Shown: in pieces, positions 45,475 to 56,010 of the stretch | Numbering within the stretch: position 1 is the first letter of the stretch | How the letters are laid out: every line of letters starts with the position of its first letter | Source of the DNA: Zootoca vivipara | Taxonomy: Eukaryota | NCBI RefSeq assembly: GCF_963506605.1 | Contig: NC_083277.1 | Span: 3,906,001-3,970,000, forward strand | DNA: 64,000 nt | Direction: 5' to 3' | Position numbers and translations under genes: made by a program | Notes under the pieces: generated by a model | What the model saw: only the letters and a program-made list of their open reading frames with translations | Databases searched by the model: none | What the model was told of the DNA's origin: nothing

Positions 45475-48400
45475 ATGGGAGCCGGAAGGGAAGGCGGCTC
45501 GGCGTCCTTCCCTGTCCCTATGGTCCATTGTGAAGGCGCGCAGGGAGGTGGGCTCCTCGCGAGTTTTCCTCCAGAAGAGGAGCTGGGCCAAGAGAGAGAG
45601 AAGAGTTCAGGGTGCAATGCAAGAAAGGTCGGGGAGAGCATGCCCGATCTTGCCTCTTTTGCATTGCACGACACTCCTGCAAGGCTGGCCAGCGGGGAAT
45701 GTTCTGGGGAGGCGCGCCTCTGGGGTGAAGGAATGCAGCTTTGCACGCAGCAGAGGTTTTTTTTTTTTTTTTGGTGGGGAGACAAATCGGGGAATCTTCT
45801 TTTCCTGTCTCCTAGGCATGCTGGGAAATCCCAGGGATTGCTTTAATTAATTCAAAGATTTGTTGCATTTATTCCCCATCTCCTCCAGGGAGTCTACTAC
45901 GTGGTTCTCCTCCTTATTTAATTCCCCTGCACAACAACCCTGAGAAGTAGGCTGCGGCTGAGAAAGCCCCGGGTCACCCACTGAGCTTCATCATGGTTGG
46001 ACGGGGGATCGAACCCGGGTCTCTCGGGTCCTAGTTTGATACTTTAACCACGGCACCACATTGGTGGAGTTGTAGAGTTGGAAGGGACCCCCCAAGGATC
46101 ATCTAGTCCAACCCCCTGCAATGTGATTGTCCCATACGAGGGTCCAACCTGCAACCTTGGCGTTATTCGCTCTCCCTGTGAGTCGGCCAGCCTCCCCACA
46201 ATGCAGCTTTTTCTTTCTTCCAGGACCTGGTGACATTTGAGGAGGTGGCGGTGCATTTCACCCAGGAGGAATGGGCTCTGCTGGATCCAGGCCAAAGAGC
46301 TCTGCACAGGGAGGTCATGGAGGAGAATTATGAGACGGTGACTTCTCTGGGTAAGGATGCTCACACCCCTCCCCCGCCTCCACAGTATGGAGTTCCCTCT
46401 CCCCAAAAAACAAGTTTCTTTCTCCCCAACTACCGGTATAACTGAATCGTAAACTAGAAAGTAAAATAAGACTGAAGCCCAAAGCATTCTTGTTGTTGTT
46501 TAGTCATTTAGTCGTGTCCGACTCTTCGTGACCCCATGGACCAGAGCACGCCAGGCACTCCTGTCTTCCACCGCCTCGCGCAGTTTGGTCAAATTCATGT
46601 TGGTGGCTTCGAGAACACTGTCCAACCATCTCGTCCTCTGTCGTCCCCTTCTCCTTGTGCCCTCAATCTTTCCCAACATCAGGGTCTTTTCCAGGGAGTC
46701 TTCTCTTCTCATGAGGTGGCCAAAGTATTGGAGCCTCAGCTTCAGGATCTGTCCTTCCAGTGAGCACTCAGGGCCGATTTCCTTCAGAATGGATAGGTTT
46801 GATCTTCTTGCCGTCAATGGGACTCTCAAGAGTCTTCTCCAGCATTCTTAGGCTATCAAAATCAACAGGGCATTCATCAAAGAATATAGCTGCCAAGTTA
46901 TCCCTGTTTTAAAGGGATTTCCCCTCATTCTGAATAGGCTTCCTCGCGAGAAAAGGGAAAACTTGGCAGCTATGTCAAAGAAGCGTGTTCAGGATGGGAG
47001 CATTAATGTGAAATTATTTCTCTTTCCTGATATATGATGTGGGAGAAAGCACACACACTCTCTCCCCAAATGCGTTTTGTCCTTTGTCAGTTCCTCCCCG
47101 CCTCCCCAATACTGTATATTCGCCCAATACTGATCATGATTACTTGAATATATGTTCTGCAACCATAATGTACATTACGTTGTAAACTGCCCTGTGGCCT
47201 TCGGATAAACGGCAGTGTATCACTTTAAAAAATAATTTTTAAAAGGTAAAAAAAGAAAGGTAAAGGACAACTGGATAATAATAATAATAATAATAATAAT
47301 AATAGAAAATTTATTTATACCCCGTCCTCCACAGCCAAGACTGGGCTCAGGGCAGCTAACAGCAGGTATAAAAACAACTGATTAAAGAGAATTTTAGAAG
47401 AAGAAATGATTTAAGAAGTAGAGAGTGCTATATTAGTTATAAATGGAAACGTGGAAGGGGGGGGAAGGAGGAAGTCGACAGAGTAAGAAAATACACTGGA
47501 ATATTATATTGTTAAAGAAATGTTCTTTTTTGTATTTTTTATGTTTTTTCTTTGTTTTTCTTTTCTTTTTTCTTTTATCTACATTTTTCAATTTTCTGTA
47601 TTTGTTATAAAATCAATAAAAATATATTTTTTAAAAAAAACAACTGATTAAAATAGAACTTAAAAACAGGATTAAAATACAACTTAAATGCAGCCATATT
47701 TCAGTGGAAGCCCAGAATCAAAACTGTTTTTGGGGGGAGAAAACGACAAATCTTCACTAAGGCCAACTATCCAGACTGGTACTACGTGGGCCAGAAAAAA
47801 AGCCAGGCAAGTCCCCAGATAGGGGTTCCATCCATCACAGAAGGAAGAGGAAAAAGGGGAAGGGGATCCGGCTGATTCCAAGCCAAAGGCCAGGCGGAAC
47901 AAACAACTCTGTCTTACAGGCCCTGTGGAAAGAAATCAGATCCCGCAGGGCCCTGGTCTCATGAGACAGAGCGTTCCACCAGGCCGGAGCCAGTGCCGAA
48001 AAGGCCCTGGTTGAGGCTAATCAGACTTTCTTAGGGCCCAGGATCTCTAGAGTGTTGCTATTTGTGGACCTTAAGGTCCTCCGCAGGGCATACCAGGAGA
48101 GGCTAGGCCGCCTCGGTCCAGTTGTCTAGGGAGATCGTCTGTTAGGGCGACCAGAACTGTCTCTTTTCCCATAACCAGGGCGAAAGCCAGACTGGAATGG
48201 ACCCAAAGCTGATGTTTCCTCCAGAAACCTACCAAGCTGTTCAGCAACCGCTCTCTCAATTACCTTACCCAGGTACGAAAGATTCGAAACCGGGCGGTAA
48301 TTGATAGATCTAAAGGATCTAACAATGTTTTCTTTAAGAGCGGACACACCACTGCTTCCTTCAGCTCCCCTGGGGATGTCCCTGTTCCAAGGGACAAGTT

Positions 48401-54400: not shown

Positions 54401-56010
54401 ATTTCATTGTGGAGGAGACGGTGCCCCTCCAGCTGGTGGACAAGCCGTCCTTCATCGAGTTTGCTCGCCTCGGCCTCGGCAAGGAGCTGTCGATCATGTC
54501 TTCCAAGACTCTGAAAGAGAGGCTAGAAAAGAAGGCCTACCACATGCGGGAGGAGGCAGCCATGAAAATGGCACAGGTGCAGCACGTGGCTACCACTGCG
54601 GACTGCTGGACGCATGGAAGGAAGACCTACCTCGGGGTTACGGCCCACTGGATCAACCCGGAGAGCCTAACTCGGGAGTGTTGCGCCCTGGCCTGCCGGC
54701 GCCTGAAAGGACCCCACGCCTACGACCTCGCCACCACTCTGCACAACATCCACGTGGAGTACAAAATCCACCACAAGGTGGTATGCACCACCACGGACAA
54801 CGGCTGTAACCTGGTCAAAGCCTTCCGAGCTCTCTACACAGACAGGGAGGCGGTGGATGTCATGGACCAAGCCGACGAAGGGGACAACGACCAGCAGGAA
54901 GTGGAGTTTGTGGATGTCTGTAACCTTCTGGACACGGGTGAGTACAGAGCTGCTGAAGAAGAAATGTGCTTGCCCCCACACCAAAGGTGCGCAAGCTACA
55001 CGCTGAACTTGGTGGCCACGCAAGACATCGAGAGAGTCCTCAACTCTAAGAATTCTCCTCTGGGCGGTTTCAAGAAACACTTTTGCTCCTTGCTGGGGAA
55101 GTGTTCTAAGCTGTGGTCCAAACAAAGGCAGTCAGCGATTACCGCAGAGTACATCAAAGACCAGTGCGGTGTCTTGCTCAGGGTCCCCAATAAGACCAGG
55201 TGGAGTACCACCTACGATGCTCTGAAGCAGCTAAGGGATCTACTGTCCGCCGCACCGCAGAAGATGGATTCCATCCTGGACTTCTGCTCCTTGCAGAGGA
55301 TCACAGCTCCCGAGGCCCAGGTTGTCCAAGAATATTGCGAGATCCTCGCTCCTGTGGCCCAGGCCCTCGATATCCTTCAAAAGGAAAACGGTATGTTTAT
55401 GGGCTATCTGCTCCCGACTCTCTATGCTCTGGACCATAAGTTGGAGGTGCTGGAGAAGAAGCCTGCAAATTGCAGCTACTGCCGCCCTCTGGTGAAGATT
55501 GTGCGGGAAGGGATAAGGAGAAGGTTTGAGCCAATTTGGAAGGAGAGGAAGCTGTTGGTGGCTGCATGCTTGCACCCTCGGTTCAAAGTGGACTGGCTGG
55601 ATCTGTGCAACACTGAGATCGGCAAAAGTACCATGGAAGCGTTGCTGAGAGCCGAGATTCAGAGGGTGGTCACAGAGCAGGTCAAGAGCTCTTCGGAGAG
55701 GGCATGCACCGCTGACTGCGACGACGAGTTTTTCGGCATACAGTCCCGAAGCAAGAAGTCTGCATCGGACTCTGCCGAAGAGGAGGTCTCGAGGTACCTG
55801 AAGTTCCCCAACAGCGAGCTGTCTTCGCTCCACGCCTTCCCGCAGATTTTGAAAAGCTTCCTTGCATACAACACGGGCCTGCCTTCGAGCGCCGCTGCTG
55901 AGCGCCTCTTTGGCGCAGCTGGGAACGCAATGACCGTGAAAAGACATTCTCTGGCGGACGACATGTTTGAGCACCTGGTGCTTCTGAAGCAGAACAAAGG
56001 CGTGGTTTGA
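45475..56010 (+). CDS. G5 KRAB-hAT transposase fusion (KRAB-A + two KRAB-B-like exons + BED finger + hAT/ZBED-type transposase), ~826 aa; exons 45475-45627 (tentative), 46224-46350, 49485-49562, 52361(or 52331)-52444, 53467-53711, 54217-56010
   Basis: GT-AG introns with matching phases (0,1,1,1,0). BED finger CKFC...[12 protein letters not shown] is completed across the intron. hAT motifs [21 protein letters not shown]. No C2H2 exon lies between KRAB and transposase. Confidence 0.85.
46224..46350 (+). CDS. G5 KRAB-A exon
   Basis: 127 bp; [43 protein letters not shown]. Confidence 0.93.
51277..52203 (+). mobile_element. Penelope-like element with GIY-YIG endonuclease remnant between inverted pLTRs
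   Basis: ORF 51491-51925 contains [21 protein letters not shown]; 51311-51520 is an inverted copy of 51990-52203; hammerhead motifs at 51370-51407 (-) and 52105-52142 (+). Confidence 0.9.
52620..53240 (-). mobile_element. L1-like LINE 3' fragment
   Basis: Decayed ORF2 C-terminus (PEIFLLG...W..F..Y). Similar fragment at 29227-29460. Confidence 0.65.
53467..53711 (+). CDS. G5 BED zinc-finger exon
   Basis: Acceptor cttacag| (phase 1), donor cag|gtaggt; PW..F...VQCKFCLPK...[10 protein letters not shown]. Confidence 0.88.
54217..56010 (+). CDS. hAT (ZBED-type) transposase-derived terminal exon of G5
   Basis: Acceptor ctcttttcttttccag|; in frame with the 566-aa ORF 54310-56010; LHPRFK and hATC motifs. 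Confidence 0.93.
   Translation, partial: KQHPEQLRVLEAAKRKNTKKHDFSEAEDASGLRPPKMPATLERWGSSREPVSQKLLDKKLLDFIVEETVPLQLVDKPSFIEFARLGLGKELSIMSSKTLKERLEKKAYHMREEAAMKMAQVQHVATTADCWTHGRKTYLGVTAHWINPESLTRECCALACRRLKGPHAYDLATTLHNIHVEYKIHHKVVCTTTDNGCNLVKAFRALYTDREAVDVMDQADEGDNDQQEVEFVDVCNLLDTGEYRAAEEEMCLPPHQRCASYTLNLVATQDIERVLNSKNSPLGGFKKHFCSLLGKCSKLWSKQRQSAITAEYIKDQCGVLLRVPNKTRWSTTYDALKQLRDLLSAAPQKMDSILDFCSLQRITAPEAQVVQEYCEILAPVAQALDILQKENGMFMGYLLPTLYALDHKLEVLEKKPANCSYCRPLVKIVREGIRRRFEPIWKERKLLVAACLHPRFKVDWLDLCNTEIGKSTMEALLRAEIQRVVTEQVKSSSERACTADCDDEFFGIQSRSKKSASDSAEEEVSRYLKFPNSELSSLHAFPQILKSFLAYNTGLPSSAAAERLFGAAGNAMTVKRHSLADDMFEHLVLLKQNKGVV

Follow-up and report, generated by a model that had tools for sequence, protein, structure and literature searches.

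A lacertid KRAB-BED-hAT fusion gene that probably encodes a dimeric DNA-binding repressor with a crippled nuclease site

ZNF862, ZBED1, ZBED4 and ZBED6 are DNA-binding domesticated hAT proteins, and ZNF862 combines a KRAB domain with a hAT transposase. They belong to other hAT lineages and are not orthologues of the lizard gene described here, to which genome matches of this kind are partial and 21-36% identical. Three KRAB-transposase fusions, KMARD1, KTIGD1 and KTIGD3, are presumably of the mariner/Tigger type, judging by their names. Together with the mariner-derived KRABINER they repress reporters in a sequence-specific manner; in that study, KRAB fusions make up 32 of 94 events, hAT elements gave rise to 23.4% of all events, and the legend of Fig. 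1 includes the lacertid branch (10.1101/2020.05.07.082677). In the fusions of that study, which sit in a KRAB zinc-finger gene setting, splicing joins KRAB exons and a transposase exon, the DNA-binding domain is retained and, in the older cases, the parental C2H2 exon is missing. The lacertid gene shares all of this; it differs from the four tested fusions in its whole BED-hAT core with an intact DDE triad. Fusions of KRAB with transposases have thus been described as a class that arises repeatedly, and the lacertid gene is a new or unremarked member of it that may be listed in Table S3 of the study. No paper on the gene was found in the literature searched, most subscription papers being outside its reach. 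The best-characterised counterpart of its transposase half is Hermes (PDB 4D1Q, 6DWW, 8EDG), with which it has the fold (TM 0.61), BED finger, N-terminal dimer region, D/D/E residues, RW motif and CxxH position in common. It departs from Hermes in a His-to-Tyr change, in altered equivalents of N320 and S576, in a 40-residue acidic loop after the second Asp and a host KRAB ahead, and in being single copy with no terminal repeats found. Kat1 of Kluyveromyces lactis is likewise a BED-hAT protein with a DDE triad, domesticated and active, but it retains CxxH and is able to cut DNA; among assayed proteins, the closest parallel to the lacertid one is the engineered Kat1 mutant C402A/H405A (PMC4763223).

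The gene lies in a window of 64,000 nt from Zootoca vivipara (GCF_963506605.1, NC_083277.1, positions 3,906,001-3,970,000, forward strand), to which all coordinates refer; all features are on the plus strand. Six exons with GT/AG ends and phases 0-0-1-1-1-0 splice in frame into an 826-aa protein with one terminal stop, in the order KRAB-A, two B-type exons, BED finger and whole hAT core, and RefSeq XP_034963279.2 (Zootoca vivipara) equals residues 16-826 (811/811 identical), which bears out the unbroken phase chain proposed in a first-pass annotation. The first coding exon (45475..45627) opens with the ATG at 45475, on the strength of the phase chain and the N-termini of P0001, P0083 and P0079; most public models, among them those of four RefSeq species, start instead at Met16 (45520). 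Then come the KRAB-A exon (46224..46350; Pfam PF01352, 80.6 bits, rank 10 of 150 scored genome KRABs), the phase 1-1 exon B of KRAB-B type (49485..49562) and a second B-type exon, B', also phase 1-1 (52361..52444; 0/28 columns variable in five lacertids). Transposase exon 1 (53467..53711) encodes a linker and the greater part of the BED finger, including C204, C207 and H227, while the fourth ligand, H232, is encoded by transposase exon 2 (54217..56010), an ORF with Hermes matches that supplies the dimerisation region, RNase H core, insertion domain, C-terminal hAT region and stop. Transposase and host domains are thus in frame and on separate exons, as expected of a host-transposase fusion. 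The frame also survives the omission of B, B' or both. As had been proposed, the window and the 60 kb downstream hold no C2H2 exon that could compete: all C2H2 arrays from window 14 kb to 116 kb come with a KRAB-A of their own.

Transcription is low-level and from the plus strand. The B to B' joint was seen in 12 reads from two of three raw RNA runs and in one contig, and is the only joint read directly among those listed, a further 46 joints lying outside that listing; a 479-nt contig ending at 53711 implies the B' to BED splice. No KRAB-A to B junction is among the read joints listed from the three runs, and the link to KRAB-A rests on public gene models (6/10 cluster members); the splicing of KRAB to 53467 in the first-pass reading stands in the models, with B to B' the one part that the listed reads show. 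The lack of this joint from the listing and the three KRAB-less models out of ten count against a repressor reading. One further model begins in B'. An annotated KRAB-less isoform uses an alternative exon (48179..48272, ATG 48197, acceptor inferred) that matches the N-termini of P0080 and P0085, and exon 1 extends past the 45628 donor in one contig and five reads. The depth of 0.07-3.7x over coding bins (6% of each run) would suit a relic without function, or an annotation artefact, a reading to which we give almost no credence: it is already largely refuted by a frame that is intact in five lacertid species and in the amphisbaenian Rhineura (97% and 76% identity), by the invariant BED finger and by the spliced reads.

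The KRAB-A domain is intact. Eight of the 11 residues named as KAP1 contacts in ZNF93 are identical, two are conservative replacements (D8E and I11V) and the remaining one is Y29H; of 19 further high-scoring KRABs of the genome, 12 have D8E, 17 have I11V and 7 have Y29H, a comparison in which 20 of 30 loci fitted the search pattern and 10 were left out. Judged by sequence, this is a typical lizard KRAB. Y29H alters a contact of the KAP1 hydrophobic core, an observation that counts against the repressor reading. Among lacertids KRAB-A varies at 3/42 columns, compared with none in B' and BED. The annotated Rhineura orthologue begins at the end of KRAB-A and gives no Pfam KRAB match. Such variability, the Rhineura model without most of KRAB-A, the skipping of KRAB-A in 3/10 models and the transcripts that read through the 45628 donor would all be expected if the main product were a BED-hAT protein with a weak KRAB or none, acting in the manner of ZBED1 or ZBED4 in binding, scaffolding and possibly activation, with the KRAB form minor. 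We consider this rather unlikely, KRAB-A being intact and in frame in gene models of all five lacertid species and its score being one of the genome's highest.

Within the protein, conservation is strongest in the BED finger. The finger is above the zf-BED cut-off on the spliced protein (23.4 bits), is variable at 0/58 columns in lacertids and matches the Rhineura orthologue at 54/58 residues, compared with 400/541 for the core (Fisher p=0.0006). The hAT fold is complete, comprising BED, dimer region and RNase H domain with a helical insertion domain; the fold model (pLDDT 85.8) has Hermes as top structural match (E 1.7e-13, TM 0.61), a single-sequence fold having been set aside at pLDDT 42. 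A homodimer is predicted through the N-terminal dimerisation region (54367..54480) with a model score of 0.43 against 0.00 for the best control, a contact agreement of at least 34% and a pLDDT of at least 64, a mark that 7/16 animal homodimers and 0/30 eukaryote monomers reach; the prediction could reflect the model's memory of Hermes. Residues 1-440 of a 549-residue fragment were modelled, the C-terminal hAT region being left out.

The lacertid gene is single copy in single-protein searches of the genome, which set a lower bound on copy number. Its next best genome match is 31-32% identical and itself degenerate, and among at least 7, 15 and 15 scored candidates in the Zootoca vivipara genome no cognate transposase was found. 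The DNA search detected no dispersed cognate transposon copies or ends, and 52445-53466 and 56011-59800 have no common inverted 11-mer. The 22 other DNA matches cover the first 47-52 bases only, an unrelated repeat end, and were rejected as transposon copies. That the protein poisons active transposases through its hATC domain, as had been suggested, is unsupported because no cognate copy was found among those candidates; moreover Hermes dimerises through an intertwined N-terminal domain rather than the C-terminal Pfam region (PMC10368747), and the dimer model, within the residues 1-440 that it covers, also uses the N-terminal part. The predicted retention of fold and dimer region, and a young intact family in Rhineura implying a target in the sister lineage, would allow a live hAT family to be restrained by hetero-oligomerisation, but the BED finger has drifted from that family (31/58 identical) and we regard the idea as highly improbable.

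Of the features of an active hAT, the DDE triad and the RW Trp are present, as first read: D358 (54601..54603, in TADCW at 54595), D423 (54796..54798, in TDNG at 54793), E791 (55900..55914 together with S795G of the ERxFS motif; AERL at 55897) and W558 (55201..55206 together with N559S; TRW at 55195). The CxxH histidine is absent, its place being taken by Y490 (TAC, 54997..54999; RCASY at 54985), aligned with Hermes H268 via a bridging homologue. Tyr in 10/10 cluster members from five lacertid species excludes a sequencing error. At this position 75 non-lacertid homologues have 69 His, 3 Tyr and 3 gaps. The three with Tyr were rejected as active relatives, two of them also without the Glu and one a fragment; to our knowledge none is active. 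Mutating the His in Hermes, Kat1 or Muta1 blocks hairpinning or transposition (PMC4763223, PMC5225508), in line with the first-pass statement that cleavage chemistry needs this residue, and double-strand-break chemistry is likely to be impaired in the lacertid protein. No assay of a His-to-Tyr hAT mutant was found in the literature searched, to which most subscription papers were closed. That the change is singular or telling is not supported: N559S, S795G and, after the second Asp, S426C and F428L are further losses, three additional conserved neighbours in the active site having changed on the same branch, and elsewhere in the family, His columns often show a replacement by Tyr.

The four other lacertids have full KRAB-bearing models of 97.0-97.3% identity, and their rows and that of Zootoca vivipara form a clade with Rhineura P0002 (SH-aLRT 100; a quick tree of 63 rows without bootstrap, excluding rows of fewer than 400 residues in the region). 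Exons B and B' are common to the lacertid gene and Rhineura P0002. Within this clade Tyr is confined to the lacertid branch; the Rhineura orthologue keeps His and all 10/10 scored active-site positions, and Tyr therefore arose after the fusion. Fixation of the change thus holds for the five lacertids and not for all orthologues, and the Rhineura-type His has persisted in the fusion for at least about 64-100 My.

We favour, as the probable explanation, a spliced single-copy host-transposase fusion whose product is a dimeric, BED-bound KRAB repressor with a likely crippled hAT nuclease site, so that the nuclease-impaired dimeric repressor of the first-pass annotation is likely. A KRAB zinc-finger gene would have received a hAT element downstream of its exon B' and lost its C2H2 exon to it, before the lacertid/amphisbaenian split. 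The retained hAT core would serve as a folding and dimerising scaffold presenting two BED fingers and two KRABs, the KRAB would recruit TRIM28, and the bound dimer would repress nearby transcription; KRAB-less isoforms might bind the same sites without repression. On the lacertid stem, selection on catalysis may have relaxed, fixing H490Y, N559S, S795G, S426C and F428L. Such a repressor would be one more transposase capture by KRAB genes.

Unnamed squamate fusions (LOC genes of Pogona, Sceloporus, Anolis, Phrynosoma, Phrynocephalus and Rhineura) fall in the same transposase clade (SH-aLRT 100), are 48-57% identical to the lacertid gene and mostly retain DDE and CxxH, but differ at the N-terminus, carrying SCAN, a divergent KRAB, a second BED or, in Rhineura, a second KRAB-tail/B fusion. 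The matches listed include none from snakes, geckos, skinks or varanids. Over 21 squamate fusion proteins the two catalytic Asp are invariant and the Glu is kept in 19, which, with the complete Rhineura site, is hard to square with a wholly idle site, a post hoc argument (about 0.05) that is only suggestive given that 14/60 background acidic columns are also invariant. This pattern and the intact DDE, Cys and RW would fit a KRAB-tethered nickase or DNA-end binder with a working metal site, in which Tyr abolishes hairpins and double-strand breaks and spares first-strand nicking, much as Kat1 C402A/H405A nicks and forms no hairpins (PMC4763223). We think it unlikely: Tyr is bulky, unlike the Ala of Kat1, the site is flanked by the four further changes, and no transposon ends were detected as substrate. 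The bolder proposal that squamate genes captured this hAT family more than once, under KRAB, SCAN or double-BED heads, with DDE still under selection, the lacertid gene being a natural site-specific KRAB-tethered nickase and thus a repressor that marks DNA as well, seems to us a similarly long shot; if nicking were true, it would be a new function for KRAB-transposase genes. The same fusion with a complete site in an amphisbaenian and His lost in lacertids forms a natural pair, and a young multi-copy Rhineura family, with DDE and CxxH intact and about 59% core identity, could supply transposon ends; together they make it testable whether old fusions keep catalytic residues for chemistry or by slow decay. 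A separate His-to-Tyr change, with loss of the Glu, is found in squamate fusion P0015.

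The first-pass annotation had claimed an unbroken phase chain from KRAB-A to the hAT core at window 45475-56010 (plus strand), and this holds: all six exons have canonical ends and join in phase to encode 826 residues, of which 16-826 are identical to the Zootoca vivipara RefSeq model XP_034963279.2 (P0083). KRAB-A scores 80.6 bits against the KRAB profile, and BED exceeds its cut-off when scored on the spliced protein. The last exon (597 residues) resembles Hermes by sequence, and its fold model (pLDDT 85.8) matches Hermes in Foldseek (E 1.7e-13, TM 0.61). Across the window and 60 kb downstream, the KRAB profile finds an own KRAB-A for every C2H2 array (window 14 kb-116 kb), so no orphan zinc-finger exon is in competition, again as proposed. 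A Ty3/Gypsy gag frame (window 59885-64000, plus strand; 418 aa, Retrotrans_gag and zinc knuckle) begins 3.9 kb past the stop codon.

The acidic triad (D358, D423, E791) and the RW tryptophan (W558) are intact, as had been read from the DNA, and the tyrosine at the CxxH histidine is confirmed: the motif RCASY (codon TAC, 54997-54999) aligns to CFAH of a bridging homologue (P0076), which aligns to C265-x-x-H268 of Hermes (chain 8edg_A). The tyrosine is fixed in lacertid orthologues, occurring in all ten members of the 90% cluster from five species (Z. vivipara, Podarcis muralis, P. raffonei, P. lilfordi and Lacerta agilis). Among 75 non-lacertid homologues the site holds histidine in 69, tyrosine in three and a gap in three; the three with tyrosine either branch separately in the tree or are fragments, and in two of them the glutamate is missing as well. 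The replacement takes one C-to-T change and is frequent at four other histidine columns in 21 squamate fusions. Of 86 columns that are conserved across 51 non-squamate homologues, 8 are altered in the lacertid protein; the count runs from 3 to 17 in the 20 other squamate members that are near-complete.

The Hermes histidine touches the scissile phosphate (PMC7780238), its change to alanine abolishes transposition of Hermes and Muta1 (PMC5225508), and Kat1 alanine mutants form no hairpins and still nick (PMC4763223); no tyrosine mutant was found in the literature searched. That the fusion protein is itself a nickase would fit the first two aspartates, invariant in the 21 squamate fusions, and the glutamate, kept in 19, when invariance of acidic columns in general is only 14 of 60. 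This retention is suggestive of a preserved metal site and is not significant, which leaves a nickase improbable.

Rhineura floridana LOC133381837 (P0002), 76% identical over 739 positions, has the KRAB-A tail, B and B' in common with the lacertid gene, which points to one and the same fusion; it clusters with the lacertid rows in a quick tree of 63 rows (SH-aLRT 100). The lacertid-amphisbaenian split is placed at 68.5-100 Mya (PMC2719621), and earlier in studies cited there. P0002 keeps all ten scored active-site positions while lacertids have lost three (the histidine, the asparagine after the tryptophan and the serine of ERxFS), so the tyrosine arose after the fusion, alongside other losses.

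The lacertid protein is probably a KRAB repressor that works as a dimer, is guided by BED and has a decayed nuclease site. None of 58 BED columns varies among lacertids, and identity to Rhineura is 54/58 in BED against 400/541 in the core (p=0.0006), yet BED is only 31/58 identical to the young Rhineura transposon family, which suggests that it diverged from the transposon and then froze, as a factor with fixed targets might. Binding of subterminal repeats by the BED fingers of Hermes is cooperative, and Hermes dimerises through an N-terminal intertwined domain (PMC10368747). The predicted dimer interface of the lacertid core lies in the same region of a two-copy model (0.43 against 0.00 for the best control; contact agreement at least 34%, pLDDT at least 64), a mark that 7 of 16 animal homodimers reach and none of 30 eukaryote monomers does, although the result may reflect memory of Hermes. 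In alignment, 8 of the 11 positions described as KAP1 contacts (PMC9753469) are unchanged in KRAB, and D8E, I11V and Y29H are common among the genome's other KRABs (12/19, 17/19 and 7/19). Four other KRAB-transposase fusions repress sequence-specifically (Cosby preprint).

Captured transposases are joined to KRAB more often than to any other host partner (32 of 94 events), 23.4% of events derive from hAT, and a lacertid branch appears in the Fig. 1 legend (Cosby preprint); the gene may be listed in Table S3 there. The lacertid fusion is real, and new or unremarked within an already known KRAB-transposase class. All squamate members form a single clade (support 100, same tree), including a young multi-copy R. 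floridana family (P0003 cluster) with DDE and CxxH intact, whose copies lie on several chromosomes and are spliced into host gene models. P0004, also from Rhineura, is a second, younger KRAB-tail/B fusion with a B exon of the same kind as in the lacertid gene. At least five iguanian gene groups (P0005-P0020, P0023, P0096-P0100; none with a gene name) bear SCAN, a divergent KRAB, a second BED or heads not fully identified. We infer separate captures, the alternative being duplication with exon exchange.

Among the matches listed, the gene is alone in the Z. vivipara genome, the next-best match being 31-32% identical and degenerate; no terminal repeats were found around it. The earlier idea that the protein poisons active transposases through its hATC domain is not borne out and is very improbable, for want of a target among the genome matches listed. 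L003 (G000:C16:38311271+), a hAT-derived frame of 605-626 aa, 31% identical to the fusion, has CFSC at CxxH, has lost RW and keeps the glutamate. The cluster to which the fusion gene belongs holds two further KRAB-hAT candidates. One, a predicted exon chain at window 24341-33090 (plus strand), has KRAB-A at 24341, a B-type exon near 26680, an open frame at 27171-27788 and a 623-aa frame of a different hAT family at 31219-33090 with CVAH intact. The other, L056 (G000:C2:6446090-6455000, plus strand), lacks any C2H2 between its KRAB-A and the BED-hAT frame downstream, which belongs to a third family, has valine for the second aspartate and is broken within the core by one in-frame stop. Akin to this frame are open BED-hAT frames at L007 (G000:C2:2560383+; 677 aa) and L004 (G000:C14:30401000+; 646 aa), both keeping CFAH and possibly further domesticated copies.

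Six of the ten cluster models include KRAB-A, three are KRAB-less isoforms and one starts at B'. Expression was read from three RNA runs, each sampled at about 6%, and from one contig set. At this sampling coding-bin depth is 0.07-3.7x, and first mates lie mostly on the minus strand, the pattern that plus-strand RNA should give. The B-B' joint is crossed by 6, 6 and 0 reads and by one contig; the KRAB-A to B joint is absent among the joints listed (15 of 61). That function lies instead with a KRAB-less product is unlikely. A 479-base contig spans the BED exon up to its donor, and its other 231 bases fit B' and B plus about 72 bases upstream. At window 45698 one base is missing in four of five reads of one RNA data set (X22) and in one contig, an allele or assembly difference situated in an exon 1 extension to about 45724 that resembles the one in a KRAB-less P. 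lilfordi model.
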